Below, in pieces: positions 1-45,411 of a stretch of 64,000 nucleotides of DNA. Within the stretch, counting starts at the first letter, position 1. Each line of letters starts with the position of its first letter. The stretch lies in the NCBI RefSeq assembly GCF_056746865.1, contig NZ_JBWKMP010000003.1; one strand, given 5' to 3'. The stretch comes from a plasmid. Under the pieces are notes generated by a model, which was not told the DNA's origin, ran no database searches, and saw only the letters and a program-made list of their open reading frames with translations. A program made the translations under genes and the position numbers.

Positions 1-99
1 AAGATAGAAGCTCAATTACGAAAGGAGCAGCGTCAGTTGGTGGCGATGACTAACCAGCTATGGAACGCCGCTGTGAAAAAACGTGAGGCTTCCCTATGA
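1..99 (+). CDS. 3' end of an upstream ORF truncated by the window start
   Basis: Frame open from base 1 to TGA at 97-99; the stop overlaps the next ATG as ATGA. Sits in the slot P1 uses for lpa, but there is no motif evidence. Confidence 0.3.
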   Translation, partial: KIEAQLRKEQRQLVAMTNQLWNAAVKKREASL

Positions 100-1460
100 C
101 GTTAATTAACTGGGAAGCGCATCGAGCTAAGTTCCTGGAGTTAAGAGAAGAAACCGGGATCACCATAAAAGAATATTGCGAGCAGCATGACCTCAGCTTT
201 AACACCGCCAGAAAGCATCTCAATATGAAAAAAAATGAGGTTAAGGCGAAAGCTAAGGCTACCGGGAAAAGTACAAAACAGCGCGCAAAAAGCAGCGCCA
301 CCGGCTCAAAAAAAGAGCAAAAAAAGGCTAATAAAAGCACAGAATTTACAAAAACTGACAAATCGTTGGCTGGTGGACGGTTCCGCGCCATGCCGCAAAA
401 ACAAAATGCGGATCACAAAGAAAAGCCAAGTAATAACAACAAGATACACAAGGATGTGAAGGGATCATTTTGTGATGAAATGGGAGAAATGATCCCTAAA
501 AGCAGCGATAAAGCCCAACGAAACAAGGGATCATTGCAAATGATCCCTGATTCATCAGCTCAAAGCACCACTTTGCCTGCCACCAACGTCGCCCGTGAGA
601 TGATGAAGAACGGCGCGACTGAACATTTACGACTTGCGATACAGATGGCGCAGGAACGAGCAATTCAGTATCAGGCTATCGTTGACCAGGAAGCGGAGCG
701 ACTACAGGAAGAGATTGACGCCCTCGGTGATACACAGCCAGAGGGGATGCACCCAGGGCAGCGTCTTCTCGGACTGATCAGCGATGCGGCCTACTACATG
801 AATGACTTTATCACCAGGCTGGCAGCCATCTATCAGAACGAGCAGAAGCTACGCCAGGGGGATGAAAAACTTGCGCAGGGCGCGCGTCAGCAGGCATTCA
901 GGGAGGCTGAGGCCAGAGAAAAACTGGCGATTGCCCGCCTACAAGCCGAGCAGCGTGGCAAGGAGATTGAGTATCGCATTGGCGCTGACGCACGCGCCGC
1001 CAGGGTTATCGCCGCCGCTATACGTATGCGTGAGCGCGAGGAGCTGGATGATATAGGTGTTGCTGAATATATCGAGCGGCAGGGCGTCAGTGTCCCGGCT
1101 ATCCTGGCGGCACGAGCGGCAAAAGCGATCTCACTTCTGGAGCCTCCGGTTTCTGACGTTAACGATGTTGATGATGAGCAACTGGATAAAGAGGCGAAGC
1201 AGTTTGCCGAGCAACAAGCTGGACTCCCACAATGGCTTGCACAACGCCGGGCTGAAGTAGCGAAAATCGTTGATAGGCTTGGGATGGGGGATTACGACCG
1301 GAACGGAGAACGTAAAGCCGGTGAATTTGAGGCCAATGATGAAGACCTGAATATAGACCCTTCCGCGACGGCTGATATCTACGGTGATTATGACGCGGGG
1401 GATACCGGTTTTGATGCTGTAGATGACGAGATTGCGATAGACCAGCCGGAGGATGACTAA
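96..1460 (+). CDS. pacA: terminase small subunit (PacA-like)
   Basis: ATG at 96 with GTGAGG Shine-Dalgarno; N-terminal HTH-like segment; stop overlaps the start of the large-subunit gene (TAATG); contains the GATC-rich repeat cluster. Confidence 0.6.
   Translation: MTLINWEAHRAKFLELREETGITIKEYCEQHDLSFNTARKHLNMKKNEVKAKAKATGKSTKQRAKSSATGSKKEQKKANKSTEFTKTDKSLAGGRFRAMPQKQNADHKEKPSNNNKIHKDVKGSFCDEMGEMIPKSSDKAQRNKGSLQMIPDSSAQSTTLPATNVAREMMKNGATEHLRLAIQMAQERAIQYQAIVDQEAERLQEEIDALGDTQPEGMHPGQRLLGLISDAAYYMNDFITRLAAIYQNEQKLRQGDEKLAQGARQQAFREAEAREKLAIARLQAEQRGKEIEYRIGADARAARVIAAAIRMREREELDDIGVAEYIERQGVSVPAILAARAAKAISLLEPPVSDVNDVDDEQLDKEAKQFAEQQAGLPQWLAQRRAEVAKIVDRLGMGDYDRNGERKAGEFEANDEDLNIDPSATADIYGDYDAGDTGFDAVDDEIAIDQPEDD
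461..547. other. candidate pac site: four GATC-containing 9-mers in inverted pairs
   Basis: GGGATCATT at 461-469 and 527-535; AATGATCCC at 488-496 and 539-547; each carries a Dam site; lies in the 5' part of the small-terminase gene, as P1 pac does. Confidence 0.4.
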
Positions 1461-2968
1461 TGGCTGGTGGTCGTAAGATTAAGTGCGTCACCAGTGATCC
1501 ACGTTGGCGCGATATGGTTATCAGGTATCGATACAACTTTACCCAGGCGGTTGTCGATATTTTTGGGATGTTCCCCTCCCACCAGCAGCAGCAGATCATT
1601 CAGTCAGTGCAGGAGACGGGGAGCAGGACGACCGTTACGTCCGGACACGGAACGGGTAAGTCGTCCCTTACCGCGATGTTGCTACTAATTTTTATGATCC
1701 TGTTCCCCGACGCCCGCGTCATTATTGTTGCGAACAAAATAGGCCAGGTAAAAACAGGCGTATTCAAATACGTGAAACAGTTTTGGGCGAATGCTGTTAA
1801 GCGCCACGGCTGGTTACAGACCTATTTTGTCCTGTCTGACACCATGTTTTATGAGCGTTCCCGTAAAGGGATATGGGAAGTGCTCTGTAAAGGTTATCGA
1901 CTCGGTAACGAAGAGGCACTGGCGGGGGAGCACGCGGAGCATTTACTGCTAATCCTTGATGAAGCATCGGGCATATCCGATAAGGCGATTAACGTCATGA
2001 CGGGGGCGTTAACGCAGAAAGATAACCGTATGCTCATGCTTTCCCAGCCTACGCGTCCAAGCGGTTACTTTTATGAATCTCACCATTCAAGGGCAAAGGC
2101 AGAAGGCAATCCGGAAGGTGTCTGGACGGCAATAGTCCTTAACTCTGAAGAATCACCATTCGTTGAACCGAGCTTTATTCGTGAGAAATTGCTGGAGTAC
2201 GGCGGCAGGGATTCGCTGGAGTACATGGTTAAGGTGCTGGGCCAGTTCCCGCGTGCAATTAACGGGTATTTGCTTGGTCGTGATGAGTGCGACCGCGCCG
2301 CACGGCGTAAAGTGTTGCTGGAGAAAGATTGGGGCTGGGTAGCGACCGCTGACGTCGGTAATGGTCGCGATAAATCGGTGCTCAATATATGCAAAGTATC
2401 CGGTTATCGTGAGAAACGACGCGTTGTGAACTTTAAGATACTGGAGATGCCAGGCACTATGGACCCGTTGGCTTTTGCCGACTTTATCTATAACGAATGC
2501 ACTCCTGATAAATACCCGAACATCACCATTGCTGTGGATGCTGATGGCTTTGGTTCAGATACGTGTGCGCAGCTTGTCCGCCGTGGTGCTAATCCCGTTC
2601 GCATCCGTTGGGGTAAGCCTATGTTTGCGCTAAGAGACAGAGAACGCTTTGTCAATCAGCGTGCTTACGCCAATATTATGGCAGGGGATGCCATTAAATC
2701 CGGGCGTATGCGTATCGATAGTGACCCCAAAACCGCAGATCAGGCATCAAAAATCCCGTATATGCTTAACGAAGAAGGGAAGGTAGCGATGATGCGCAAG
2801 GAGCACATGCGGCAGAAGTTAAACATCAAGTCACCGGACAGATGGGATACCTACTGCTTCACTATGCTGGTGGATTACGTGCCTGCTAATGAAGACATTG
2901 GCGCAGAACTCGCAACATTCCGCGATCAGGTGTTGGCAGAAGTGGATATTCCTGATATTGACATTTAA
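1460..2968 (+). CDS. pacB: terminase large subunit (PacB-like)
   Basis: Walker A (TSGHGTGKSS) and Walker B (LLILDEASGI) motifs; 502 aa; translationally coupled to pacA. Confidence 0.75.
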   Translation: MAGGRKIKCVTSDPRWRDMVIRYRYNFTQAVVDIFGMFPSHQQQQIIQSVQETGSRTTVTSGHGTGKSSLTAMLLLIFMILFPDARVIIVANKIGQVKTGVFKYVKQFWANAVKRHGWLQTYFVLSDTMFYERSRKGIWEVLCKGYRLGNEEALAGEHAEHLLLILDEASGISDKAINVMTGALTQKDNRMLMLSQPTRPSGYFYESHHSRAKAEGNPEGVWTAIVLNSEESPFVEPSFIREKLLEYGGRDSLEYMVKVLGQFPRAINGYLLGRDECDRAARRKVLLEKDWGWVATADVGNGRDKSVLNICKVSGYREKRRVVNFKILEMPGTMDPLAFADFIYNECTPDKYPNITIAVDADGFGSDTCAQLVRRGANPVRIRWGKPMFALRDRERFVNQRAYANIMAGDAIKSGRMRIDSDPKTADQASKIPYMLNEEGKVAMMRKEHMRQKLNIKSPDRWDTYCFTMLVDYVPANEDIGAELATFRDQVLAEVDIPDIDI

Positions 2969-3005: not shown

Positions 3006-4043
3006 TTACCAGAGTTTTGCCGCGTACATCGTTTGTGTGAATGTGTACCCATAGCGTTCTTCAACGCTTTTACCGTATTTTTTCCTGGCTTCAGTAAGGC
3101 GGATGCCTGTCAGGTCATCGCCGGAGGCAATCATAACTTCCAGTAGTTCCAGGTCCATTTTATCCAGCCTTGCCATTGCATCTTTAGCCTCTTGAATTTT
3201 CCGGCTAACGATCTGGTGTATGGCTGGATCGGCTTCGGCCAGCATTTTATCTGATTTGTTTTTTAAACTCTGATTGCGGATATCAATGTTTCTCAGGATA
3301 TATGACTTCACGACGTAGCTTGGCTGCTGCTTTTCCAGATCACGAACCCGATAAAGGTCAAATTCGCCGAGAAGTCCGCACGGAAGCGGTTTAATGCCAG
3401 TGTAAATGGTAAGGGTGCGGCGCTCACCAACGTTGTTAACAACGGGAATCTCTGTGTTTGCTTTTTTTGCAAAGATCAGCGCACCGTGCGTACCCACTCT
3501 GAAGCGTGAAAGTCCATTGTTGCCCTCAATATTGGTGGTAATCACCACATCGGTATAACCTTCTTTTCTTGCGCGGTATACCTCGCCCTCACGTTCAGCG
3601 GCGAAGAATCTGCGTTCTTCTTCAAGCGCACCGACAACCTGTGAAAATATCCTGTTTTTCATGCTTTTCTTTATAGTTTTATCGTATTTTTTCAGCAGGT
3701 CTTCGCGCGTAAATGTTCTCGTTGTGGTTGCGCTTTGCATAACGATGTGCGTACTCTGATTAGTATCCTCAACAATGAATGGGATCGGTAAATAAACCGA
3801 CTCAACAATGTTTGAGGCTTTGTCATCATCCTTGCGACACAGATCAACAAAGGCTTTCCATTCGGCTATGCATTTTTCAGCTTCTTCTAATACAGCCGGA
3901 TCATGTGTTAATGCAACATGGCGAAATTCCTCGCCAACATAACTGGTATCATGGAAAACAGAGTTTGCGACCACCAGCTCTTTCCACCTTTCAGCGGTTT
4001 GCAGGAACCGTTTGTACTCATTCTCGATCGACTTCTTACTCAT
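3006..4043 (-). CDS. hypothetical protein in the c1 immunity-repressor slot
   Basis: Start taken at the internal ATG (plus 4041-4043) with AGGAA Shine-Dalgarno; operator-like motifs lie just upstream; position between pacB and rox/dre matches P1 c1; no recognised domain. Confidence 0.5.
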   Translation of the reverse strand: MSKKSIENEYKRFLQTAERWKELVVANSVFHDTSYVGEEFRHVALTHDPAVLEEAEKCIAEWKAFVDLCRKDDDKASNIVESVYLPIPFIVEDTNQSTHIVMQSATTTRTFTREDLLKKYDKTIKKSMKNRIFSQVVGALEEERRFFAAEREGEVYRARKEGYTDVVITTNIEGNNGLSRFRVGTHGALIFAKKANTEIPVVNNVGERRTLTIYTGIKPLPCGLLGEFDLYRVRDLEKQQPSYVVKSYILRNIDIRNQSLKNKSDKMLAEADPAIHQIVSRKIQEAKDAMARLDKMDLELLEVMIASGDDLTGIRLTEARKKYGKSVEERYGYTFTQTMYAAKLW

Positions 4044-4060
4044 TATTCCTACTCGATTTA

Positions 4061-4157
4061 GTTTTCTAACATAAAAGTCCTGTGACAAATTTATGCTGAA
4101 TAACAAGGTGAGTAAAGGATAAAACCGCTTTTTTTTGATTGTTCCTATTAGAAAATG
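4061..4157. promoter_or_regulatory. two operator-like motifs upstream of the immunity-slot gene
   Basis: GTTTTCTAACA at 4061-4071 and ATTAGAAAATG at 4147-4157; same motif family as the palindromes at 24565 and 35913. Confidence 0.4.
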
Positions 4158-4239
4158 TAACCAGGAGCGGCTACCGCATGGCTGACGGATTTGCGAAGTG
4201 ATCTGGTCGGTGTTTTTTTGGGAAAAAAGTTCCGATTTC

Positions 4240-4271
4240 TAACTTTAAATAATTGGCATTATTTAAAGTTA
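4240..4271. other. rox recombination site (Dre target)
   Basis: TAACTTTAAATAAT-TGGC-ATTATTTAAAGTTA: perfect 14-bp inverted arms around a 4-bp asymmetric spacer; its reverse complement matches the rox site as I recall it; 152 bp upstream of dre. Confidence 0.85.
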
Positions 4272-4423
4272 GGCTATAATCTCCAGTAAACAGGCAGTAT
4301 TGACAAGGATGAAAAATCATGCCTCGAATCAAAGGCTTGAATTTTGAAAATTAACTTATAACTACCCTGTCAGTTTTCTATTTTTCACGTAGCGTTATCT
4401 GTATATAGAGGTTTAATAGTTTC

Positions 4424-5452
4424 ATGGGTGAACTAGTTATCTCCGGCGGTTCTGGTGGTTTTCTGCGCGATATTGGCACCGAATACCAGGAAGCTGCAAA
4501 AAACTTTATGCAGTTCATGAACGACCAGGGAGCTTATGCTCCAAATACGCTTCGAGATCTCCGTCTGGTGTTTCATTCCTGGGCGCGGTGGTGTAATTCG
4601 CGCCAGCGCCCCTGGTTCCCGATTACGCCGGAAATGGCCCGCGAGTATCTTCTCCAGTTGCATGAGGCCGATCTGGCCTCGACCACCATTGATAAGCACT
4701 ATGCCATGCTTAACATGCTGCTTTCGCAATGTGGCCTCCCGCCGCTGTCGGACGATAAAAGTGTGTCTCTGGCCATGCGGCGCATCCGGCGCGAAGCGGC
4801 AACGGAAAAAGGCGAGCGAACAGGCCAGGCTATACCGTTGCGGTGGGATGATCTGAAATTGCTCGACGTGTTGCTGTCCCGTTCCGAGCGGCTGGTGGAC
4901 CTGCGCAATCGGGCGTTTCTCTTCGTGGCATACAATACCCTGATGCGTATGTCAGAAATCTCGCGCATCCGCGTCGGAGATCTGGACCAAACAGGTGACA
5001 CTGTAACGCTGCATATTTCACACACGAAGACCATCACGACCGCCGCCGGACTTGATAAGGTGCTTTCTCGTTACACTACCGCCGTACTGAACGACTGGCT
5101 GGAGGTGTCCGGACTTCGAGAACATCCGGACGCGGTGCTATTCCCGCCAATACACCGCAGTAATAAGGCCAGAATCACGACAACGCCCCTTACTGCACCT
5201 GCAATGGAGAAAATATTCAGCGATGCCTGGGGGTTGCTGAACAAACGAGATGCCACGCCGAACAAAGGAAGATACCGGACGTGGACAGGCCATAGTGCGC
5301 GTGTTGGTGCGGCAATTGATATGGCTGAGAAACAGGTGTCAATGGTCGAGATCATGCAGGAAGGTACATGGAAAAAGCCCGAAACACTTATGCGATATTT
5401 GCGCCGTAGCGGGGCATCCGTTGGTGCAAATAGTCGCCTGATGGACTCATAA
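4424..5452 (+). CDS. dre: Cre-family tyrosine recombinase Dre
   Basis: 342 aa, colinear with Cre from the N-terminus; RHR and catalytic-Tyr region present (TGHSARVGAA..LMRYLR); paired with the rox site. Confidence 0.85.
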   Translation: MGELVISGGSGGFLRDIGTEYQEAAKNFMQFMNDQGAYAPNTLRDLRLVFHSWARWCNSRQRPWFPITPEMAREYLLQLHEADLASTTIDKHYAMLNMLLSQCGLPPLSDDKSVSLAMRRIRREAATEKGERTGQAIPLRWDDLKLLDVLLSRSERLVDLRNRAFLFVAYNTLMRMSEISRIRVGDLDQTGDTVTLHISHTKTITTAAGLDKVLSRYTTAVLNDWLEVSGLREHPDAVLFPPIHRSNKARITTTPLTAPAMEKIFSDAWGLLNKRDATPNKGRYRTWTGHSARVGAAIDMAEKQVSMVEIMQEGTWKKPETLMRYLRRSGASVGANSRLMDS

Positions 5453-5498
5453 ATTAATTTTCTAACAACCTTTTTAGACAGTGCATTTTAATGTAAAG

Positions 5499-5527
5499 TA
5501 CCCTCGCCTATTGCGGAGGGTACTTTG
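5499..5527 (+). terminator. intrinsic terminator after dre
   Basis: GTACCCTCGCC-tatt-GCGGAGGGTAC hairpin followed by TTTG. Confidence 0.5.
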
Positions 5528-5629
5528 CACAATCGTATTACGGAATCAAAACGCTTCACTGTTGACGGTTACACCATAACCTTCACTGCGGGCGTTAAGC
5601 GCGACCAGGCGGTCGTGGTGTTCGGTGTT

Positions 5630-5869
5630 ATGACCGGACTTGATGCCGTTCCCGTATTTACCCTCGAAAAAAACTGGCGAAATCTGGAGGAAGCTGAACG
5701 CTACGTCCGGAAAGTAACCGTCATTGCTGCTGAAAAACTCCTGGCCCACTATCAGGAAAATTATCGCGCTATGACCGAGAAAATTAACCATGTTTTCACT
5801 CGCCCCACCAGCGGCTTCATTGCCCCTGATGCGAATGCCGGGCGCTATCCGGCAAGGGGGCGCAAATGA
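5630..5869 (+). CDS. hypothetical protein (start uncertain)
   Basis: The ORF track's TTG start at 5525 overlaps the dre terminator, so the first in-frame ATG at 5630 is used; stop overlaps the next gene. Confidence 0.3.
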   Translation: MTGLDAVPVFTLEKNWRNLEEAERYVRKVTVIAAEKLLAHYQENYRAMTEKINHVFTRPTSGFIAPDANAGRYPARGRK

Positions 5870-7516: not shown

Positions 7517-8323
7517 GTGGAAAATACCAAGAACATTCAATATCGCTTGCGTAACGGCCTGCTGGTGGATGTAAACGATGATATGTCCCTGCCCTTTGCC
7601 ACCATTGAGCGAACCATCCTTACATACCTGGGCTTAGACGAAGAGTTAGATAGTGAGAATGGCATTGCTATCTGGCGTGACGGAAAAACGGGAGTCAGAC
7701 GTTTTATTACGGCAAGAGGCATTCAGTGCACACAGGAAGAATTGTTTGAACTGGCGCAGTCTTATGGATGCATCGCGTTAGATCCCCTGTATGACCCAGC
7801 CATAGCACAACAACTCATTCGAGAGCTGTCGCTTTCGGTCACGCCAATAATCTTCCGCCAGGGAACCTTAACCGGCACATGGCGTGTAGAACGCATCTCT
7901 AAATATCAGCCATATAATATCCATTTGAACGGCACTATTACTGGTGTGGATCAACCAGTAGCAGGTGAAAACAAAGACCTGGAACTTGCAGTAATGATGG
8001 CAGCTTGTCGCGTGCTTGGCCTGGGCAAGCAGATGTTTATCCATTTCCCAAACGGCGCGGAAGGCGAAGTAGAGCTGATTTCCTGCGACTTTTCCTTAAC
8101 CTGGATGCTTGATGAATTCCTGGACAAAACAGTATTCCGTGCTGAAGAACTGGATATGTATGTCACCTCAAGTATTCCTAATGACGTGAAAGTTGAGGCC
8201 ATCGCTACAGCCAGGGCGAAATGCCGTGCGGCGATTGCAGAACAGGCCAAAGAAGAACAGTCCGATGAAGTCGCGGCAGATGTGGAGGCAGAGGTAGCGG
8301 AGGATGCTGATGCTGACGCCTAA
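7517..8323 (+). CDS. hypothetical protein with acidic C-terminal tail
   Basis: GTG start with GGAG Shine-Dalgarno; 268 aa; ends in an Asp/Glu/Ala-rich tail. Confidence 0.45.
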   Translation: MENTKNIQYRLRNGLLVDVNDDMSLPFATIERTILTYLGLDEELDSENGIAIWRDGKTGVRRFITARGIQCTQEELFELAQSYGCIALDPLYDPAIAQQLIRELSLSVTPIIFRQGTLTGTWRVERISKYQPYNIHLNGTITGVDQPVAGENKDLELAVMMAACRVLGLGKQMFIHFPNGAEGEVELISCDFSLTWMLDEFLDKTVFRAEELDMYVTSSIPNDVKVEAIATARAKCRAAIAEQAKEEQSDEVAADVEAEVAEDADADA

Positions 8324-9410
8324 AAACATCACCGAATTACCAGAGTGGAGAGAGCTGGTAAGCAAATATAGCCATGACTGGGCATTAGCAGCAGAAGAGT
8401 TGATGGGTGTTAAGTTAACCCACCAGCAAAAGCTAATTGTTGAGGCGATTCAACAAAAAGGTTCAGCAGTCAGCGTCACCACTCCTGAAGGGATAGGCCA
8501 AAAGACGGTTATCGCTATAATTAGTATTCTTTATACAATCCTGATGCCTGAGTCTAAAACGGTTATTGTTTCCCCAAAGTTCTATAATTGTCGCAGGCAA
8601 GTTATCCAATACATAAGTACGTATTGGGATAGAGTCAGTAACAGAATCCCATTGCTGGGAGAATATTTTAAAGTCGACGGAAACGGCATCAATCATCGTT
8701 ACCGGGAATATTGGGGCTGCGAAATTAAGCCATATCACCGAAATTATGAGGAAGGTTTCGGTGGATATTATGCTGAACATCTTTTAATCATTGTTACGGA
8801 GGCGGCTCTTGCTGGCGATCGGCTATTCAGCATGTTAAGAGCATCGTTAGTAAGTGACGATTCACGTATACTTTTAATGTCCGCTCCTTCAGAGGAGGAG
8901 CATGGACACTTTTACGATTCCCATCATGGTCGTGCAAAATCAGAAGAAAATCCATGTGGTATTTATACAGCCATCAAGCTGAACGCAGAAGATACCCCCA
9001 TTATTTCACAAGGTTATCTTGATAACATTGCAGAAATATATGGTGGTAAAAACAGCGATTACTACCGTCGCATGATTCTTGGTGAGTTTCCAGGTATTAG
9101 GGAGGCTGTTCTTGAATCAGATATGCCGAAAACAATGCGCTTTTCGATGCCTGATGGTAGTGAATGGATAATGCCATTACGAGTGATAGCCCGGCATCAT
9201 GCACAGCACCACGCCAAAAAACATGGCGTTACAACATTGGAGTGGTTGAAATCGCACACCATTCCACTCTTCACTGCAGATCACAATGCTATCGTTGAGT
9301 GGGCAAAAACAATTCCGTGGGAGAATGTCGCTGAATACGCCCACATGCTAAAACCGCCGAAAGACAGGCAAGAAATTAGCTGGCTGACAGCAGAAAAAAT
9401 CATTGAGTGA
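8304..9410 (+). CDS. terminase-large-subunit ATPase-domain paralog with degenerate Walker motifs
   Basis: Clear similarity to the 1460-2968 ATPase domain (THQQKLIVEAIQ.. vs SHQQQQIIQSVQ..; FYDSHHGRAKSEENP vs FYESHHSRAKAEGNP), but Walker A reads TTPEGIGQKT and Walker B IVTEAA; no nuclease-domain counterpart. Confidence 0.6.
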   Translation: MLMLTPKNITELPEWRELVSKYSHDWALAAEELMGVKLTHQQKLIVEAIQQKGSAVSVTTPEGIGQKTVIAIISILYTILMPESKTVIVSPKFYNCRRQVIQYISTYWDRVSNRIPLLGEYFKVDGNGINHRYREYWGCEIKPYHRNYEEGFGGYYAEHLLIIVTEAALAGDRLFSMLRASLVSDDSRILLMSAPSEEEHGHFYDSHHGRAKSEENPCGIYTAIKLNAEDTPIISQGYLDNIAEIYGGKNSDYYRRMILGEFPGIREAVLESDMPKTMRFSMPDGSEWIMPLRVIARHHAQHHAKKHGVTTLEWLKSHTIPLFTADHNAIVEWAKTIPWENVAEYAHMLKPPKDRQEISWLTAEKIIE

Positions 9411-11198: not shown

Positions 11199-11834
11199 TC
11201 AGATATCGGCCTTATTCGGAATTTTATCAGCCACCAGCGGCAATAAAGCCTTCGCCATTTCATGAACCAACATGGCATCAATGACGCCTAGCGTATGGCC
11301 CGGTTTAATGTTTAATGCCGCCTCAAGATGACTCCTTTCCAGGCCGCTTTTCTCGGCTTGTTTATGACGATCTGGTGTAATAACTTCGCCCAAAACGCGG
11401 CTAATTTTTTCTCGTAATTGCTGGGTGCCAGCACACTTGATCGCTGTATCGTGGAGACGGTTAACCAGTTCGCGATAAACATGCGGCTTAATGCGGATAC
11501 GTTCACCGGTGACGCCCTTTCCTGGCGCTGGCACCGAACTATCCGGATAGTTGCCAGCCTCGTAAGCTACCCGCAGCCAGTGCATGAATGTTTCAGTGGA
11601 CACACAACCACAGTCCACATCGATTTTTCCGCGTTGCTGTTCCAGCCACTGCTCAAAATTCAATCTACACGTATTACTTTCATGTTGCTCTTTTTGTCTC
11701 AAGGCCAGCATCTGCTGGGCTATTTCCAATACTTCATCTGCCGTATATCCAGCACCGTGACCATACATTTCGATACGGGAAATAATCTCTGATATACGCT
11801 CTTCAGTGATTCTGGTCATTTCTTTTTGCGCCAT
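11199..11834 (-). CDS. hypothetical protein
   Basis: 211 aa; C-terminal segment (HVYRELVNRLHD..GTQQLREK) is shared with the C-terminus of the DUF4406 protein at 23758-24369. Confidence 0.45.
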   Translation of the reverse strand: MAQKEMTRITEERISEIISRIEMYGHGAGYTADEVLEIAQQMLALRQKEQHESNTCRLNFEQWLEQQRGKIDVDCGCVSTETFMHWLRVAYEAGNYPDSSVPAPGKGVTGERIRIKPHVYRELVNRLHDTAIKCAGTQQLREKISRVLGEVITPDRHKQAEKSGLERSHLEAALNIKPGHTLGVIDAMLVHEMAKALLPLVADKIPNKADI

Positions 11835-15159: not shown

Positions 15160-15912
15160 TTACTCACCTCCTTTGATGCGAATGCCTGCGGCGCGGATTG
15201 CAGCGATGACTTCAGAAACTTTGTATGCCATTACCGTTTGGTAATCATCGTGAAAATCTGTTCGATGAAGCATGCTGCTACGTTCCGGGAGCGATATTTC
15301 CCGAGCATCCAGTTCCTTAACGCGTTCCTCCAGTTCGTAGACCCTGCATTGTTCTCTATCATCAATCAGATATACCCCAAGACATTCGCTTTCTACCCAA
15401 CCGCCAAAATCATGATCGTAACGCTCACATGAAAACTCACCGTCACCGTCCTTTGTTGGAATGGTGTAACTATCTAATGGGCCACCATATGTCGGCACAT
15501 TTCCCAATGTTGGATGCTCAATCCACATGAAAAATGCACGTCCGGTTATTGGGCAAATATCTGGCCGCCATTGGTTACGAACAGCCTTGGTTTCGGATAA
15601 TTCTTCAGCGTGTTGTTTTACTTCCTCAAGCTCAACTCTCAGCTTCCCTACCGTTAGCGCAATATCCTCGTTCTCCTGATCGCGGCGTTTTATGTATTGC
15701 TGGTTTCTTTCCCGTTCATCCAGCAGCGCCAGCACGGTTTCTGGTCCGGTCAGAAATTTGAAGGCGTTGAGCGCATCAATATCCACACCGTAATCTTTAA
15801 GTTCCTGTTCACTTAACAAATCATCATCAGCTGGCAACATTAACAGGCGTTCCATTGCTGGAATTGCACGTTCCGCCGCCTCACGCAGTGCCTGGTAATT
15901 AATTTCGCTCAC
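15160..15912 (-). CDS. Ea22-like family protein
   Basis: Contains [35 protein letters not shown] and the C-terminal [10 protein letters not shown] typical of Ea22-like prophage proteins; GTG start overlaps the upstream stop. Confidence 0.6.
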   Translation of the reverse strand: MSEINYQALREAAERAIPAMERLLMLPADDDLLSEQELKDYGVDIDALNAFKFLTGPETVLALLDERERNQQYIKRRDQENEDIALTVGKLRVELEEVKQHAEELSETKAVRNQWRPDICPITGRAFFMWIEHPTLGNVPTYGGPLDSYTIPTKDGDGEFSCERYDHDFGGWVESECLGVYLIDDREQCRVYELEERVKELDAREISLPERSSMLHRTDFHDDYQTVMAYKVSEVIAAIRAAGIRIKGGE

Positions 15913-16571
15913 TGGTTGCCTCCTTTGCGAAGCTGGGCAGCAAAGTCAACTAACCACTCAGTCATTTCAACCTTCCCTACCAGGTCGGAACCAGGGTGCA
16001 TACAGCAATCACTCTGCGCCGCTTTGAAATCCTTACACTCATATTCTTTGGCCACCAGATTTTTTGCAGCTTCTATAGCAGCATCCACCCCCTGCGCCCG
16101 CACTTCAGCCAGAAAAGCATCGGTAGCTGGAGTTTCGCTGTGGTGTAGGGCATCGTTGATAATCATTGCAGCAACACCAGCCTGCCCTGCATCCGTGACC
16201 GACACATGCTCAAGAGTTACGGCCATTGCGTGTTTCAGCCCAGCGTTCTCTGCCACCAGCGCAGCGATATTAGTCTCAAGCTCTGAAATTCGGCACGTGG
16301 CATCAATATTTGTGTCCTCCAAGCACTTAATTTCACCAAGCAGCTCCAGTGCAACCTTTGGGTTGAACGCGGCAACATGACGAGCGTTGTTCTCTGCATT
16401 TTTCTGTCCATCAAAGCCGGTCCATTTGATAACGTCTTCACATCGTTCATCACCGGGCGTGTGCACCGCATAAGTACCAGTATCCGTCGAAATAAATGCG
16501 ACCCATTCGTCTGGTGTTGCCTTTTCTGCCGCCTCACGCAGTACCTGATAGTCAATTGTCATTCTCGCCAT
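15909..16571 (-). CDS. accessory protein, [13 protein letters not shown] / QLRKGGNQ paralog family
   Basis: Shares the TDAFLAE(V/I)RA motif and C-terminal QLRKGGNQ with 21036-21803, 22951-23454 and 17200-17439. Confidence 0.5.
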   Translation of the reverse strand: MARMTIDYQVLREAAEKATPDEWVAFISTDTGTYAVHTPGDERCEDVIKWTGFDGQKNAENNARHVAAFNPKVALELLGEIKCLEDTNIDATCRISELETNIAALVAENAGLKHAMAVTLEHVSVTDAGQAGVAAMIINDALHHSETPATDAFLAEVRAQGVDAAIEAAKNLVAKEYECKDFKAAQSDCCMHPGSDLVGKVEMTEWLVDFAAQLRKGGNQ

Positions 16572-18451: not shown

Positions 18452-19447
18452 TCAGTTATTGAACGTGATCACTCCGCGCTCGATGGCGAAGTCGAAAAGC
18501 TGGTTGGCGGCTACGTAAAGGCGTATGCCATGTGCTTTTTCCCATGCCCGGACATCGTTTTCTGCGCTTCTGGCGCATTCATCGCAAAGAGGAACGGCCC
18601 AGCGATCGTGTTCGTTTAACGAGCGGGCGCGGTACATGAACGGGTGATTAACTTTGCCTCCGCATCCGATGCACGGACGAGAAATCACAAACCGGAGATA
18701 AGCCGGGCTTTTACCGAGAACCGCTTTTGGTCGGCGCATATACAGCAGGCCGGAATCCTCATCTACAGACAGGTTGACGATCTGCTCTGCGGTTATGTCC
18801 ACCAGCTCACGGGTGCTGTGCTCCCAGGTGATATCCGATTCTTTCAGTGTGCCGGTAGGGATTTCCTGTTTTGGCTGACAAAATGCAATGCGACCGGCTT
18901 CATCTGGCAGCTCGTCTTTCAGATTCCGGCGAATGGCCCAAAAAGTGAGTTCAACCATGCTCAGATCGCGTTCTGGCGGTAGTTTTAACTCGCTCGCAGC
19001 CCAGTTCATAACCCAGTTGGCACGATTCAGGGATAACTGGTCATCCAGCTTGCCGTACCCCTTCATCATGTATTCCGCATCATGCTTCCAGCACAGGCGA
19101 ACGGCAGAGCCGTTATAGAAATGAGTGGTTAGCTGGTGGCTGCAATCGCGCTTATCGTGCGCCTGGCAATCGTGGATATTGGAACTTACCCAATGAACAA
19201 GCGAATCTTCACCGCCTAATGCGTTAAATACGCGCTCGCTTTGAAAAAATGCTTTCAGAGACTGGTTGGCAACCAGCGAATAGTTCAGATCCACTACGCC
19301 ATCTGGCGTGTTTTCAGCCTGTTCGCGCGGAAGTGGAGAGATAATGAAACGGCGACCTGCGCCAATGTAGTTGCTGGTGGGCTTGTCTACCGGAAAGACA
19401 GCCACACCAGCTCCGTTTACGAAATGAGGTGTGATTATTGCACTCAT
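18452..19447 (-). CDS. DUF968-like protein with a C-terminal Ref/HNH-like Cys-His cluster
   Basis: RPCIGCGG..H....VPLCDEC at the C-terminus, similar in pattern to the ref-like gene at 24641. Confidence 0.45.
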   Translation of the reverse strand: MSAIITPHFVNGAGVAVFPVDKPTSNYIGAGRRFIISPLPREQAENTPDGVVDLNYSLVANQSLKAFFQSERVFNALGGEDSLVHWVSSNIHDCQAHDKRDCSHQLTTHFYNGSAVRLCWKHDAEYMMKGYGKLDDQLSLNRANWVMNWAASELKLPPERDLSMVELTFWAIRRNLKDELPDEAGRIAFCQPKQEIPTGTLKESDITWEHSTRELVDITAEQIVNLSVDEDSGLLYMRRPKAVLGKSPAYLRFVISRPCIGCGGKVNHPFMYRARSLNEHDRWAVPLCDECARSAENDVRAWEKAHGIRLYVAANQLFDFAIERGVITFNN

Positions 19448-19490
19448 AATGTATACCGACTCTGTTTTGTTCCGAGCGGTAAAATAATAT

Positions 19491-19520
19491 GTTAGAAAAT
19501 TAAAATCAATATTCTAACAC
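19491..19520. promoter_or_regulatory. operator-like imperfect palindrome (internal promoter region)
   Basis: GTTAGAAAAT..ATTCTAACAC between the phosphatase gene and the DUF968-like gene. Confidence 0.4.
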
Positions 19521-19551
19521 GGTTTTGAGTGCATAAACGATGTGTTCAGGA

Positions 19552-22073: not shown

Positions 22074-22724
22074 TCACTCTCCTTTGATGCGAATGCCAGC
22101 GGCACGGGAGTCATTCCATCGCTTTACTTCTTCACGAATTACGTCAATGCATTCTTTCGAATCCATTAGGTAATCTTCATCAAAAAGCCTTTCCTGTTCG
22201 TTTTCTATCGCAACAATGATTGCTTCAACTAACTTTTGTGCCTGAGAACCACTTTCTAACTCTGCAATGCGCTTCTCTGCGGCTTCCAGCTTCTCGCGCA
22301 TATCGTCAACGTACTCGACCAGAGATCCGCCAGCAGGAATTTCGCACTCCTCGACCAGTTGGAAGTAGATATCAGCTGCGGCCCGTGTGTTGCTATGCCT
22401 AGCGTCGCCCATCTCACCTTCACGAAGAGCATCGCGTTCGGCGGTAAGATTGGCTATTTTGCTGTCTTTGCCTTCAAGCTCAACGCGCAGCTTCCCTACC
22501 GTTAGCGCAATATCCTCGTTCTCCTGGTCGCGGCGTTTTATGTATTGCTGGTTTCTTTCCCGTTCATCCAGCAGCGCCAGCACAATGTGTGGCGTTATCA
22601 AGGACTCAAATTCGGCAACAGCTTGCTCACCTCGCTTGTAATTCTTAATCCCACCTAAATCTTTCGCGTTCTGTGCCGCCTCACGCAGCGCCAGTGTGTC
22701 GATGTCGATGTCGATGTTGCTCAT
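22074..22724 (-). CDS. Ea22-like family protein
   Basis: Shares the [35 protein letters not shown] block and C-terminal AAGIRIKGE with 15160-15912. Confidence 0.55.
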
Positions 22725-24521: not shown

Positions 24522-24564
24522 CATGACCTCCTGATATAGCGTCTGAAAAAAGTATCTTCATTTT

Positions 24565-24596
24565 GTGTTAGAAAATCAATTTTGATTTTCTAACAC
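24565..24596. promoter_or_regulatory. palindromic operator in the divergent promoter region
   Basis: GTGTTAGAAAATCAA-tt-TTGATTTTCTAACAC; 15-bp arms, perfect apart from the centre. Confidence 0.55.
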
Positions 24597-24640
24597 TTTT
24601 GATCAACCATAGCGGCGATGTAGACAAACCGGGTATTTCT

Positions 24641-25216
24641 ATGAAGCAAAGCTATTGGGAGAAACAGACACAAAAAGCCCTGCAAAAACTGGCTGATCCG
24701 AAATGGCGGGAGGAACAAAGGGCAAAGCGTCTTCAGCAAGCTCAACGCCAGCAGCAGCGTGCGCGAGAAAAAGCCGCATCGCCTGAATATCGGCAAAAGA
24801 AAATTGAAAAAGCGAAGCAATATGAACAGCGAAGAAAAGAGAAGGCCGCTTCTGCTCCTGTCAAAAAAACTCGCGCGTCACGCGGCCTGAAAGGCAGAAC
24901 ACTCACAGCAGATGAGCGCCGGATACAAACTGCCATCGGTGCTCTCCCCTGCATTGCCTGCCATATGCACGGACAGCATAGCCCTGTGGTATCCCTGCAC
25001 CACATCTTCGGGAGAACAGCAGAAAACGCGCATAAATACGTCCTCCCTTTGTGTAAATGGCACCATCAACACGCAGCGCCAGCAGAGATCCGCGAGCAAT
25101 ACCCCTGGTTGGTTCCTGTTCATGCTGATGGAAAAATAGGCGGCAAAGCAGATTTCAGGCGGCACAATGCTGATGAAATGACGTTGTATCAGATGGTGAC
25201 TGAATTAATAAATTAA
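24641..25216 (+). CDS. ref: Ref-like HNH endonuclease (recombination enhancement function)
   Basis: Highly charged, basic N-terminal region followed by a Cys/His HNH-like core (CIACHMHG...LPLCKWHH); start at ATG 24641, not the track's TTG. Confidence 0.5.
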   Translation: MKQSYWEKQTQKALQKLADPKWREEQRAKRLQQAQRQQQRAREKAASPEYRQKKIEKAKQYEQRRKEKAASAPVKKTRASRGLKGRTLTADERRIQTAIGALPCIACHMHGQHSPVVSLHHIFGRTAENAHKYVLPLCKWHHQHAAPAEIREQYPWLVPVHADGKIGGKADFRRHNADEMTLYQMVTELIN

Positions 25217-25547
25217 TTTTCTAACATTTTAAGTTGAATTGTGAAATTCGCCGTTGTACATTCACAACCGATTGGTACACCGGTCAACTTTTTGAGACAA
25301 ACCGTTTGGTTTTTCGTATGATTGCCGCCGCCATACCAATGGCGGTGCAATATAGGTGGCTGAAAAGCCCCCGTTGACTCACGGTGTTCCAACCTTTATT
25401 GCGCCGCCACCAGACCGTGGAACAGTCGATGGCGGCTCCGAAAGCAAGGAGTCACTACACTATGAACAGCTACTGTCTTTTCCCATCACTCGTTATCCGC
25501 CACTCACGCGATAATCTGCATTCTTTACTCGCGCTGGGGGTGTCAAA

Positions 25548-25715: not shown

Positions 25716-25818
25716 GAAAACACACAGTTGCGCCCTGGCATTATCGTGGGGTATATTTCTACGGCACCTTAGAAAAACGGGTGCCGGGATTGGAACCCCG
25801 GATAATGTCAAAGGCGAC

Positions 25819-25846
25819 ACAGACGCCGAACGCGTCTTTTTTTGTG
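25819..25846 (+). terminator. hairpin with T-run between target site 1 and the c4-like RNA
   Basis: AGACGC-cgaac-GCGTCT followed by TTTTTTGTG; short stem. Confidence 0.35.
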
Positions 25847-25892
25847 TCATGCCATCGCACAGCCATACTTAGCGTTTAGCTCAGAGATCAAT

Positions 25893-25972
25893 GGTAGTGC
25901 TGGCTGGGCTGCCGAAAGGCAGGCCGGTTCCCTTTGACGCCGGTAGTTCCAACCCAGTCAGTGCTACCGCCA
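25893..25972 (+). ncRNA. c4-like antisense regulatory RNA (immI-type)
   Basis: About 80 nt; acceptor-like stem GGTAGTGC / GTGCTACC followed by G-CCA; internal GNRA hairpin CTGCC-gaaa-GGCAG; single-stranded CCCTTTGAC and GTTCCAACC complementary to sites at 25787-25814 and 25975-26020. Confidence 0.4.
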
Positions 25973-26028
25973 TTGAGATTGGAACCTCACGCGGTAGCTC
26001 CTTAACTTAGTCAAAGGAGGCTGCCAAT

Positions 26029-26244
26029 ATGGCTACTATCCCTACCCCAACTCATTCTGAATTTATCTGGCGTTTCTATTCCTGCCAAAAACACCTTTAT
26101 ATCTGCGTAATGGCTGCTACCGAAGCAGAGGCGCGCTCATACCTTCCCGAAGAACCCTGCATTTTTGCTGCTCGCTTCACTCTTGATGCGATGGAGATCC
26201 TCAATTACTGGAATCTGCCAATGAACTGCGTGGAGGTGCACTGA
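26029..26244 (+). CDS. Icd-like small protein, translationally coupled to ant
   Basis: 71 aa; AAGGAGG Shine-Dalgarno lies inside the predicted antisense target; stop overlaps the ant ATG. Confidence 0.45.
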   Translation: MATIPTPTHSEFIWRFYSCQKHLYICVMAATEAEARSYLPEEPCIFAARFTLDAMEILNYWNLPMNCVEVH

Positions 26245-27185
26245 TGAATCTGTCCATCTCTCAAAAAGCGACAATGACCAGCATTGAGATCGCGGAACTG
26301 GTAGGAAGTCGCCCAGATAGTGTGAAGAGAACTATCGAAACACTGGCTAAAAAGAGTGTGATTCAATTTCCACAATCTGTGGAAATTGAAAATAAACAAT
26401 CAGTTGGCCCTCGTCGATTTTCCAAGGCTTACATCTTTGAAGGCGAACAAGGAAAACGAGACAGCATCATTGTCGTCGCGCAGCTCTCTCCGGAATTTAC
26501 CGCCCGGCTGGTGGACCGCTGGCGCGAACTGGAGAATGCCCGGGTACAGTTAAAATCCAAAGCCGAAATCCTGGCCGAAATGGCGCAAATGCATCTTGAG
26601 CATGAACGCCGGATCAACGCCGTTAATGCCCAGGTAGCCGAAGTATCGGCACAAGTGTCCAGGGTCACCGAAACACTTGAGCAGATCAAGAAAGGCAATA
26701 TTCCAGAAGGCTACATTGGCTATCGCCAGTTGGCGGCAAAATGCGGCCTGACTGAAGCCAAATGCCGCAACCTGGTCAACGCTTACCGGATACCCACTGA
26801 TACGCATGAGTTTTTAACTCCCGACGGTTTGCTTGCGCGACGCTCCATTGTGGCCCTGGCCCCCTTCCGGAAAGCCTTTAAGCAGGTTATGTCGGAGGCA
26901 GAACCACGTAACAAACGCTGGTATCATCCCAGGATGGGGCTATTTCAGGCCATTCACCATCCTGTGCCTGAAAGTCCAAAGGCAAACCTGTCGTTGCATA
27001 CCGCCAGAGAGAAGATTAAAACAGGGTATGCAACCGTATGCCGTCGAGCATCCTGGCCTGAAAGTGTCTGGGTATGGCCCGAAAGAGGCTCACGGAAAAA
27101 CTGGCGCACCATTCGCGACGGCAAGATCTGTGCGATTGATTTACAGCCAGAAGATGTAGCAGCGACCGACTGGATTGTTAGTTAA
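26244..27185 (+). CDS. antirepressor-like protein (Rha-type N-terminal domain)
   Basis: N-terminal TSIEIAELVGSRPDSVKRTIETL resembles the Rha / phage-antirepressor N-domain; occupies the ant position. Confidence 0.55.
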   Translation: MNLSISQKATMTSIEIAELVGSRPDSVKRTIETLAKKSVIQFPQSVEIENKQSVGPRRFSKAYIFEGEQGKRDSIIVVAQLSPEFTARLVDRWRELENARVQLKSKAEILAEMAQMHLEHERRINAVNAQVAEVSAQVSRVTETLEQIKKGNIPEGYIGYRQLAAKCGLTEAKCRNLVNAYRIPTDTHEFLTPDGLLARRSIVALAPFRKAFKQVMSEAEPRNKRWYHPRMGLFQAIHHPVPESPKANLSLHTAREKIKTGYATVCRRASWPESVWVWPERGSRKNWRTIRDGKICAIDLQPEDVAATDWIVS

Positions 27186-28592: not shown

Positions 28593-28802
28593 GTAAACAA
28601 ACTGAAGTTTTATGTTACAAAAGCAAACATCTACGCCAAAATGACTTAGGCCAAATTCAGCGCGAATAAAAAAATCAAAAAAATTGTTGACACTATTCTG
28701 GAAATCACAATCTGGACAAAATCCATTGCGCAAACGGCTCCCGTTGAAGGTTCTTTTGACGACTAACTTTCAGCCGATGCGCGGTAGGGAGTCATAACGC
28801 CA

Positions 28803-28857: not shown

Positions 28858-29511
28858 ATGCAAAAGATCGCAATATTCAGTCTTTCTACTAACAAGCCGC
28901 TGATGGCTACGGCAGTCCTGAAAGACGGCGCGCTTGTAATTGACAAAGTAAAGCCGCTCCCTGCATCTGCTATTGAACAAAAACGAAAAATTCCACCAGC
29001 AATTGCCGAGCTGCGTAAAAGTGAATTTAAGGTGCTGGTTGACGAAATCACGCCAACCATTTCAGCCGGTACAGGTGCCAGCCAGGTAACATTAAAAACA
29101 CGGCACGCCGACGGCAGAGCAGCGATCATTGTCGGCATGGAGAGATACCGGGAGCTGAAACTACAAAGGCTGCTATCCCTGCCTGACAAGAACAAAGGGG
29201 CATTTGAGATCCCCGACTCTATCGTCGATACCGAATACAACGGCAACGGTGAAGAGGTTTATCGAGTTAACTGGCAAGATATCCGACCAGAGCACATCCT
29301 GATGATTCTGTGCTGCTATGCAACGGTATACCACAATGTTGCCAGCGCGGATTACCTGAAACAAATGACAGGAGCGGTAGAGAAAGAAAACAAAGCAGGG
29401 ATAATGGCCTCGTTCCTGTCCATTATCAGCGATCAAAAAGCTAAAGCAGGAAATACCCAACCAAAATCGCTGGCCGGGCAAGTAATTGATGAAGATACGG
29501 TGATACTTTAA
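28858..29511 (+). CDS. hypothetical protein
   Basis: 217 aa; ATG with upstream GGAG. Confidence 0.5.
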   Translation: MQKIAIFSLSTNKPLMATAVLKDGALVIDKVKPLPASAIEQKRKIPPAIAELRKSEFKVLVDEITPTISAGTGASQVTLKTRHADGRAAIIVGMERYRELKLQRLLSLPDKNKGAFEIPDSIVDTEYNGNGEEVYRVNWQDIRPEHILMILCCYATVYHNVASADYLKQMTGAVEKENKAGIMASFLSIISDQKAKAGNTQPKSLAGQVIDEDTVIL

Positions 29512-35912: not shown

Positions 35913-35956
35913 AAAACTGTGTTAGATAATTGAGTTTTATTTTCTAACACAGTTTT
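35913..35956. promoter_or_regulatory. palindromic operator upstream of rdgC
   Basis: AAAACTGTGTTAGA ... TCTAACACAGTTTT: perfect 14-bp arms with GTTAGA / TCTAAC cores. Confidence 0.5.
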
Positions 35957-35963
35957 GCGAAAC

Positions 35964-36869
35964 ATGAGATTAGTCGCCTTTAAAAACATATACGTCTATC
36001 GCCTTGCCCGCGAAATTAAACTGGACTCAACCACCGTTAGTGATGCCTTAAGCCAATTCACATTCACTCCATGCGCATCACAAGAAATGGCAAAAGTCGG
36101 ATGGGTGCCGGTTCTGGCTGACAACCTGATCCATGAATACCACGGTTTTCTACTTCTCCAGCAACAGCGAGAAATTAAGCTCCTGCCCTCTCATGTCATT
36201 AAGGAGGAAGTGCAGAAAAAAGTGGAAAAGCTCGAAAATGAGCAATCTCGTAAGCTGAAGAAGTCGGAAAAAAACACCCTGAAGGATGAAGTTCTCCACT
36301 CTTTGTTGCCTCGCGCATTCACTCGCAAATCATTGTCGCGAATCCTTATTGATCGCGACAACTATCTGGTCTTCGTAGAAGCTTCCAGCGCCAGAAAAGC
36401 AGAAGAAATGCTGGCGCTCTTACGTAAATCACTTGGCAGCCTGCCAGTGATTCCATTCACGCCGATAGAACCGCTCGAAATGACTATGACCGAATGGTTC
36501 AAGTCAACATTTCCTCAAGGCTTTAAAGCAGGCGAAGAAGCCATATTGAAATCTCTGTTCGATGACGGCGGCGCAGTTCGTTGCAAGAAAGTAGACCTAC
36601 AGTCAGAGGAAATAATGACTCATATTGAAGCCGGAAAAGTTGCAACAACAGTTGCAATCAACTGGCAGGACCGCGCGACCTTCAGGTTAAACGATGACAT
36701 GAGCATCAAAGCACTGACGTTTTGCGATGATCTCTATGACCAGAACGATGACATCGACCGTGAAGATGTTGCCCAGCGATTTGATGCTGACTTCATTCTG
36801 TTCACAAGCGAATTATCCGCGATGTTTAGCTCGCTGGTGGAGGCCATTGGCGGTGAAGCAGAGCATTAA
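35964..36869 (+). CDS. rdgC: recombination-associated protein RdgC
   Basis: Colinear with E. coli RdgC throughout (KEEVQKKVEKLENEQSRKLKKSEKNTLKDEVLHSLLPRAF...); ATG at 35964. Confidence 0.85.
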   Translation: MRLVAFKNIYVYRLAREIKLDSTTVSDALSQFTFTPCASQEMAKVGWVPVLADNLIHEYHGFLLLQQQREIKLLPSHVIKEEVQKKVEKLENEQSRKLKKSEKNTLKDEVLHSLLPRAFTRKSLSRILIDRDNYLVFVEASSARKAEEMLALLRKSLGSLPVIPFTPIEPLEMTMTEWFKSTFPQGFKAGEEAILKSLFDDGGAVRCKKVDLQSEEIMTHIEAGKVATTVAINWQDRATFRLNDDMSIKALTFCDDLYDQNDDIDREDVAQRFDADFILFTSELSAMFSSLVEAIGGEAEH

Positions 36870-45330: not shown

Positions 45331-45411
45331 TGTTCTAATGTTTTATGTTAGAAAATTAAGATTAAACCATACTAACACAAGATTGTTAACGAAAATTATT
45401 TTTCTAATGCT
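45331..45411. promoter_or_regulatory. divergent control region with three operator-like motifs
   Basis: TGTTCTAATG (45331), GTTAGAAAATT (45347), TTTTCTAATGC (45401); TTGACT -35-like hexamer at 45412. Confidence 0.4.

Follow-up and report, generated by a model that had tools for sequence, protein, structure and literature searches.

Phage-plasmids carry resistance genes in Enterobacteriaceae, and the repressor C1 of one of them, P1, has been under study since the 1980s. P1 C1 binds asymmetric operators (PMC1934351), whose consensus is ATTGCTCTAATAAATTT (PMC8546580); 22 of them are dispersed over the P1 genome, and their targets include c1 itself, lpa, ref, dmt and the immI operon among others (PMC4713147, PMC8546580, PMC1934351), ref being under C1 control (PMC4713147). 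In phage D6 the corresponding protein has carried a repressor label in GenBank since the 2004 record; it is annotated, as far as could be found by similarity, as 'c1: phage repressor protein' (AY753669) and as 'prophage repressor, similar to P1 gene C1' (MF356679), and near-identical plasmid copies are listed in RefSeq as 'phage repressor protein'. Here we analyse a gene for a 345-amino acid (aa) protein at positions 3006-4043 of a 64,000-nucleotide stretch of a plasmid (NCBI RefSeq assembly GCF_056746865.1, contig NZ_JBWKMP010000003.1), which we call the window. A preliminary description, made from the letters of the window alone, had left the gene product as an unrecognised protein in the c1 immunity slot, which might be a master repressor, though a divergent one, or else an unrelated cargo gene. 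We find that the gene very probably encodes the master lysogeny repressor, C1, of a D6-like plasmid prophage and acts through a set of sites listed below, a reading for which homology, synteny, an enriched motif and the co-variation of operator and repressor all argue. What goes beyond routine annotation is the operator set with its co-variation, the differences in circuit from P1, and a predicted Tus-like fold of the C1 family.

Comparison with the two reference repressors, which the preliminary description had proposed as a check, places the protein in their family. It is 80% identical to D6 C1 (AAV84948.1/ASR76322.1) over 345/345 aa without gaps, the differing 20% of residues lying most densely in 181-240 and 271-300, and a BLASTP comparison with P1 C1 (283 aa) gave an E value of 1e-7 at 21% identity, pairing residues 7-237 with residues 8-242. 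PHROG 1678 is matched both by the window protein (E 5.9e-159) and by P1 C1 (E 2.6e-140), and a weak match was obtained to NF041318 (phage_rep_C1, the NCBI equivalog model for P1 C1) over residues 9-244 (E 1.8e-5). The label PF27008 is precomputed on all homologs in a large protein collection. Homology to P1 C1 is detectable over a conserved core of about 245 residues in this family of PHROG 1678, PF27008 and NF041318 relatives, whereas the likeness to D6 C1 extends over the full length, C-terminal extension included. The description of the protein as unrecognised and without a domain holds for Pfam-A and gives way elsewhere, given PHROG 1678, the weak NF041318 match and a D6 ortholog already annotated as a repressor. 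PHROG 1678, the family of the experimentally characterised P1 C1, is itself labelled 'unknown function', and many plasmid copies are entered in RefSeq as 'hypothetical protein'; these annotations could therefore be corrected.

That an unrelated cargo gene or enzyme occupies the c1 slot would be in keeping with the Pfam-A scan of the 345-aa protein, which returned no domain and a single, meaningless coiled-coil match (E = 1), and with the lack of a helix-turn-helix motif. It is contradicted by the significant homology to both P1 and D6 C1, and the structural neighbours presented below are DNA-binding proteins. An unrelated enzyme family, named in the preliminary description as the outcome that would speak against a repressor, was looked for, and none was matched in Pfam, NCBIfam or PDB; sequence searches of PDB with the protein and with the family profile gave nothing relevant. 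We assign the cargo-gene reading a vanishingly small probability. On these comparisons the protein is of a known kind with near-identical public copies, and its identity is in itself ordinary: the E. coli plasmid NZ_CP069647 encodes an identical protein and an E. marmotae plasmid one that is 99.7% identical, the D6-type allele occurs at 80-90% identity on about 96 plasmids, and other alleles are found at about 66%, 56% and 30%.

The family is small and associated with phage-plasmids, with 110 members recovered by a profile search of 1.84 billion representative proteins. About 12 of these are long (345-380 aa), and the rest measure 250-285 aa like P1 C1. Since the short members align to residues 1-245 only, the D6-type protein can be described as a C1 core followed by a C-terminal extension of about 100 aa, which aligns in all long-form homologs and is missing from P1 C1. 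The length of 345 aa is constant across alleles of 30-100% identity.

The surroundings of the gene agree with those of c1 in D6 and P1. The features of the locus are as follows.

96-1460, plus strand: pacA.
1460-2968, plus strand: pacB, convergent with c1.
2970-2989, no strand assigned: G+C-rich hairpin AGCCCCG-GCGATT-CGGGGCT in the gap that separates pacB from c1, with TTTAAAT after it on the c1 strand.
3006-4043, minus strand: c1 coding sequence for a D6-type (long-form) C1, 345 aa plus stop, from its translation, the D6 alignment, PHROG 1678 and the AlphaFold2 model.
4047-4050, minus strand: Shine-Dalgarno sequence AGGA, with a 3-nt gap (ATA, 4044-4046) to the ATG, the same in D6.
4240-4271, no strand assigned: rox-type recombination site of 32 bp, identical to the annotated D6 rox, bounding the immC-like region.
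4424-5452, plus strand: Dre-like recombinase gene, its protein 94% identical to D6 Dre.

The c1 open reading frame lies on the minus strand, with the ATG at 4043 and the stop included at 3006, as the preliminary description had it. A longer frame starting at a TTG at 4106 (366 aa; the frame is open that far upstream) was considered and rejected, because D6 C1 and the other homologs begin at the equivalent ATG, with the methionine of MSKK/MKK, and because the operator and the Shine-Dalgarno sequence would fall inside the extension. Compared with D6 c1, the gene has a nonsynonymous divergence (dN) of 0.123 and a synonymous divergence (dS) of 1.20, that is dN/dS of about 0.1, by which it is under purifying selection, and the locus is no outlier in divergence because the dS values of the flanking pacB and pacA are similar. 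The position also stands as first described: c1 lies between pacB and the site-specific recombination site, which has 15-nt perfect inverted arms at 4239-4253 and 4258-4272, and is transcribed toward pacB as expected of the immC position. The order pacA-pacB-c1-site-recombinase is common to D6, to P1 and to three further plasmids, from E. coli, Leclercia and Citrobacter, and D6 C1 has the same length and the same slot between pacB and rox/dre, just as P1 and P7 c1 share genome position and orientation. The hairpin at 2970-2989, identified by reading the sequence and falling under the T-run threshold of the scan, is likely a terminator. As for the element as a whole, the window is part of a D6-like phage-plasmid of Escherichia; its first 20 kb are 95-98% identical to E. 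coli and E. marmotae plasmids of about 90 kb, and phage D6, with about 79% DNA identity across c1, is its sole relative in the phage collection.

The preliminary description had pointed to operator-like motifs directly upstream of the gene, and these proved to belong to a set dispersed over the window. The 10-mer TGTTAGAAAA occurs in 8 copies in 64 kb and, together with Chi-derived words, ranks among the commonest 10-mers, with only one Chi-derived word commoner; extended, it yields the 17-nt consensus TRTGTTAGAAAAYTAAW. A 17-mer weight matrix finds 11 window sites at 16 bits or more vs 0.23 in composition-matched shuffles, where it must be kept in mind that the matrix was trained on the same 11 sites. 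D6, which lies outside the training set, provides an independent check, with about 15 matrix sites at 14 bits or more and with TGTTAGAAAA as the commonest 10-mer of its complete genome (10 copies). The candidate sites in the window, with their coordinates and the D6 equivalents where mapped, are the following.

4057-4073, minus strand: proximal operator candidate TATGTTAGAAAACTAAA, 14 bp upstream of the c1 ATG, 24.5 bits, the putative autoregulation site.
4060-4088, minus strand: weak promoter candidate TTGTCA-17-AAAACT overlapping the proximal operator, 8/12 consensus matches, conserved in D6, not significant alone.
4144-4160, plus strand: weak inverted distal operator-like site with the core TATTAGAAAA, one mismatch, below 10 bits, tentative.
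5453-5469, minus strand: operator candidate just past the recombinase gene and upstream of an orf117-like gene (5525-5869), 22.5 bits; D6 89946-89962.
19488-19521, no strand assigned: bivalent operator candidate upstream of a pdcB-like HNH gene (18452-19447, minus strand), 27.3 + 19.7 bits; D6 80707-80740.
24564-24597, no strand assigned: bivalent operator candidate upstream of a ref-like gene, 26.1 + 24.7 bits.
25212-25228, minus strand: operator candidate at the head of the immI-like operon (c4 RNA, icd, ant), 25.3 bits.
28611-28627, plus strand: operator candidate upstream of a mat-like gene (28858-29511, mapped to D6 mat), 20.4 bits.
35918-35951, no strand assigned: bivalent operator candidate upstream of an hrdC/rdgC-like gene (35955-36869, PHROG 724), 21.3 + 24.9 bits; D6 64114-64147.
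45344-45360, plus strand: operator candidate between an orf52-like gene (44937-45329, minus strand) and the major capsid gene (45489-47186), 26.2 bits; D6 54203-54219.

The ref-like gene has its open reading frame at 24599-25216, with the D6-equivalent start near 24638, and belongs to PHROG 2321. Three of the sites are exactly abutting inverted pairs of 17-mers, 34 bp each, whereas the paired P1 operators Oc1ab overlap (28 bp). The weak site at 4144-4160, whose D6 counterpart at 111-127 scores 11.9 bits, is a possible second autoregulatory site. About 75 bp upstream of c1, operator included, are almost identical to D6 while the spacer farther upstream is heavily diverged, a contrast which therefore reads as the footprint of function; the proximal operator and the ribosome-binding region are identical in the two elements, and the operator core TGTTAGAAAA is common to both. 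D6 also has sites upstream of lpa and pmgS. Like P1 and P7, the window presents many dispersed, asymmetric 17-bp sites, here candidates, some single and some paired, including sites upstream of c1 and of early lytic genes; sites at the repressor's own gene, at ref, in the hrdC-dmt region and, in D6, at lpa, as well as an immI-type c4-icd-ant module, are features of both. The sequence read by the P1 repressor is another: ATTGCTCTAATAAATTT has 0 matches at up to 3 mismatches in the 64-kb window, and the specificity of P1 is accordingly not seen here. The upstream motif is thus supported as one that behaves like a C1 operator, being dispersed and asymmetric, standing before the repressor's own gene and lytic genes, and co-varying with the repressor allele as described next.

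Within the set, position 13 of the operator differs between the two elements: T in the window faces C in D6 at the orthologous sites 19488/D6 80724, 25212/D6 75978 and 45344/D6 54203, so that window operators favour T where several D6 sites have C, and the c1-proximal operator has C in both. This could be neutral drift at a tolerated pyrimidine or the start of a shift in specificity.

We compared the operators of three related plasmids with the same gene order, one from E. coli, whose C1 (the allele of pHX138.33gt_1) is 66% identical, and two from Leclercia and Citrobacter, whose C1 is about 30% identical and has the 345-aa form. On the E. coli plasmid the TGTTAGAAA core is kept, 14 times in 41 kb, the preferred form being TGTTAGAAATT, and sites lie upstream of c1, rdgC, ref, a pdcB-like gene and lpa. 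On the Leclercia and Citrobacter plasmids the TGTTAGAAA-type motif is missing and TTCTAAGGCTT is found instead, in 5 and 7 copies respectively at no more than one mismatch, at three orthologous positions: before c1, before rdgC and just after the recombinase gene. The operator changes along with the repressor at fixed positions, and this is the best non-experimental evidence that the C1 family reads these sites. TCTAA is common to the P1, D6-type and Leclercia-type motifs and may, as a weak indication, reflect contacts made by conserved residues. The operator sets TRTGTTAGAAAAYTAAW (D6-type) and TTCTAAGGCTT (Leclercia/Citrobacter-type) amount to a natural series of matched repressor/operator pairs, on which the evolution of immunity specificity in phage-plasmids could be studied.

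The Leclercia and Citrobacter elements also carry a second word with GTGATCA (e.g. TGCGTGATCAC) upstream of c1, at 19851 in element L009 and at 19816 and 23836 in element L010, and in L010 it occurs upstream of pacA too. It may be the binding site of another regulator.

Around the repressor, the circuit resembles that of P1 in one module and departs from it in several. Downstream of the operator candidate at 25212-25228 lies an immI-like module, which by analogy with the immI antirepressor mechanism of P1 (PMC8546580) presumably acts on C1.

25887-27185, plus strand: c4 antisense RNA, icd and ant together, the presumed antirepressor module.
25764-25842, plus strand: isrK Hfq-binding RNA (Rfam, 61 bits, above the gathering score).
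25887-25974, plus strand: C4 antisense RNA (Rfam RF01695, 77 bits, above the gathering score).
26029-26244: icd, the upstream neighbour of ant.
26244-27185: ant, Ant antirepressor (PHROG 63).

The isrK and C4 RNAs stand just upstream of icd and ant. When the window and D6 were searched by tblastn for the P1 partner proteins Coi, ImcA, ImcB and Lxc, the best match, at E 0.076, was a chance one of 13 residues to the ImcB query, which is 32 aa long. The gap from c1 to rox measures only about 170 bp and therefore leaves no room for coi, which D6 lacks as well. Because Coi, ImcA/B and Lxc are without a homolog, the regulatory circuit differs from that of P1, in agreement with the report that D6-like elements are without Lxc and have a second c4/icd region (PMC6799933). 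The C-terminal extension, for which P1 C1 has no counterpart, bears no resemblance to P1 Lxc. In D6, orf13 (86 aa, D6 11549-11809, minus strand) occupies the exact slot of P1 lxc, immediately after ulx and darB. No similarity of its sequence to Lxc could be detected; by position it may stand in for the C1 corepressor, or it may have nothing to do with it.

A circuit so clearly unlike that of P1 (PMC6799933), with the Coi and Lxc partners missing and with two icd/ant modules and other small regulators in D6-like elements, might suggest that this C1 homolog is no longer the master switch, and has been reduced to a secondary role in immunity or exclusion or is a remnant in decay, while another regulator controls lysogeny. 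The strong purifying selection (dN/dS about 0.1) and the length held at 345 aa through all allele divergence do not suit a gene in decay. The operator set, moreover, is maintained, co-varies with the protein and stands before the same functional gene classes as in P1, and no other C1-like gene was seen in the window. We consider such a demotion very unlikely and retain C1 as the master repressor, for which the homology to D6 C1 and P1 C1 and the operator behaviour of the upstream motif speak, so that the first of the two options in the preliminary description is borne out.

The remaining question is how a protein without a classical DNA-binding motif would recognise these sites, and here the structure-based search, proposed in the same description along with the profile search that yielded PHROG 1678 and NF041318, returned Tus as the only significant PDB fold match. 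An AlphaFold2 model built from the family alignment of 94 sequences has a mean predicted local distance difference test score (pLDDT) of 95.3 and a predicted template modelling score (pTM) of 0.83. In the model, residues 1-232 form an alpha/beta region with long helices at 3-26, 49-72 and 113-148 and long strands at 99-112 and 155-171, and the C-terminal part consists of a helical hairpin (233-270 and 273-307) followed by three short helices within 316-342. A Foldseek search of PDB gave four significant matches, all of them Tus (E 1e-7 to 1e-6, probability 1.00), the next having an E value of 0.1. In AFDB50, C1 relatives take ranks 1-19, among them models named 'Repressor protein C1' and 'Primary repressor of lytic functions', and from rank 20 onward models named 'DNA replication terminus site-binding protein' follow by the dozen, from a wide range of Gammaproteobacteria (E 1e-8 to 2e-6); within the top 50 the Tus-family models are interleaved only with 'Uncharacterized' proteins, and no other named family appears. 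The Tus fold is thereby recovered on the predicted model, at 9% identity between Tus and the window protein in the structural alignments. Pfam Ter is also the only family weakly matched by more than one of the 94 C1 relatives (2/94 at E of 0.1 or below, best 0.027).

Tus is monomeric and grips its asymmetric site through inter-domain beta-strands that lie in the major groove, and P1 C1 is reported to be a monomer as well. The resemblance makes functional sense because both bind asymmetric sites, and a Tus-like fold would explain how C1 binds DNA without a classical motif such as a helix-turn-helix. R159 is invariant across the 94 sequences, and R41, P88 and G187 are conserved in at least 90% of them; for R157 and H186, invariance holds only within a smaller alignment of nine sequences (A1), P1 C1 included. 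R41, R157 and R159 lie on predicted strands, and H186 and G187 in the turn between strands 178-182 and 188-192. On the model we hold it somewhat likelier than the contrary that the Tus-like fold of the C1 core, and with it the DNA-binding mode, is real. The wider proposal, on which we would place even odds, is that the whole P1/D6-like C1 family are structural and probably evolutionary relatives of Tus, which would bind operators as single molecules through inter-domain beta-strands, with the D6-type extension as an added module in place of functions that P1 leaves to separate proteins, such as Lxc or Coi docking. The predicted resemblance fits distant homology of C1 and Tus as well as convergence. 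We claim a resemblance of fold and no membership of the Tus family because the sequence-level link is below threshold: the window protein has no match to Pfam Ter (PF05472). Tus itself (PF05472; PDB 1ECR, 4XR0-2) differs in its role, which is polar fork arrest as against transcriptional repression by C1, and has no counterpart to the C-terminal extension of the D6-type protein. We found no paper that links Tus with C1 repressors in a literature coverage that was incomplete, and the copy of PDB that was searched contained no solved structure of C1; as far as could be seen, the Tus-like fold of the C1 family is unreported. Were it true, it would offer a testable account of how C1 recognises asymmetric sites without a classical DNA-binding motif, and would link a narrowly distributed Tus/Ter system to a phage-plasmid repressor lineage, with a hint at the origin of Tus.

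A structural kinship confined to Tus proteins outside the C1 family, together with sites that are asymmetric and dispersed like Ter sites, invites the thought that the protein is a Tus-like replication-fork barrier, or some other replication or partition factor, whose sites arrest or organise replication and not transcription. The sites, however, are intergenic and stand directly upstream of c1 and of lytic and early genes of the kind repressed by P1 C1, and repression by P1 C1, a homolog, has been established experimentally. The single sites, both in the window and in D6, are few and of mixed orientation, with no obvious fork trap by inspection only, and no Ter-like sequence and no Tus family membership were found. 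We judge a fork barrier highly improbable.

With C1 as the master repressor, the mechanism would run as follows. C1 would bind the asymmetric 17-bp operator of consensus TRTGTTAGAAAAYTAAW, probably as one molecule per site, at operators dispersed over the genome as single sites and as 34-bp abutting inverted pairs. Binding would repress its own promoter, the early lytic genes (ref, hrdC/rdgC, pdcB and mat, with lpa in D6) and the c4-icd-ant operon, and this repression would keep the plasmid prophage state and confer immunity. The specificity would be unlike that of P1/P7 and the same, or nearly the same, as that of D6. Release would probably proceed mainly through the Ant antirepressor, since neither Coi nor Lxc is present. 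The conserved core (about 1-245, common to P1 C1) would take a two-lobed alpha/beta Tus fold in which R41, R157 and R159 contact DNA, and the D6-type-specific extension (hairpin 233-307 and three-helix unit 316-342) would, as a best guess, pair molecules at bivalent or distant sites or dock the antirepressor.

Several results weigh against this account or parts of it. The NF041318 score is 24.4 bits vs a cut-off of 500, and because of this the window protein counts as a family relative and no equivalog of P1 C1. Sigma-70 promoter scans near the operators gave weak candidates with 8/12 matches, which we do not rely on, and neither the window nor D6 has a homolog of the P1 partner proteins Coi, ImcA/B and Lxc. 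The binding of one molecule per site is an extrapolation from P1 C1 and from Tus, and the DNA-contact role of R41, R157 and R159 is read from the model. The Tus resemblance rests on that predicted model with modest template modelling (TM) scores of 0.40-0.48. An hhalign comparison of the C1 family with Tus reached a probability of 5.5% on a shallow Tus alignment and of 14.9% once homologs of Tus from plasmids had been included, both below significance, although the register was identical in both runs (C1 82-195 vs Tus 142-272), and a hidden Markov model of the C1 family finds no Tus among PDB sequences.

Beyond the repressor, we observed further features of the window. Words with the Chi sequence GCTGGTGG (reverse complement CCACCAGC) in them are, with the operator motif, the commonest 9- to 11-mers in the window (e.g. 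at 8420, 10362, 12823, 28993, 44284 and 44588). They are equally prominent in D6 and in the three related plasmids, in whose 31-41 kb a single 9-mer can number 14-23 copies. On the plus strand, 8304-9410 encodes a 368-aa paralog of the large terminase PacB (33% identity over the ATPase half, E 1e-51) in which the Walker A motif is degenerate (PEGIGQKT vs GHGTGKSS) and the nuclease half is lacking; it is the counterpart of a D6 gene annotated as similar to P1 pmgU.

Tandem 22-bp repeats TGAGGGCAAATCTTACACCTTT in 3.9 copies occupy 53689-53775, and a short 11-bp array follows at 53849-53877. The same repeat words occur in D6 just upstream of a repA-like gene, and the two arrays look like iterons of a plasmid replication origin. 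Finally, two words of 13-14 nt have three copies each in the early-gene region, the first at 5827-5839, 15174-15186 and 22085-22097 and the second at 15875-15888, 16528-16541 and 22675-22688; they probably mark paralogous ead/Ea22-like or similar small genes.

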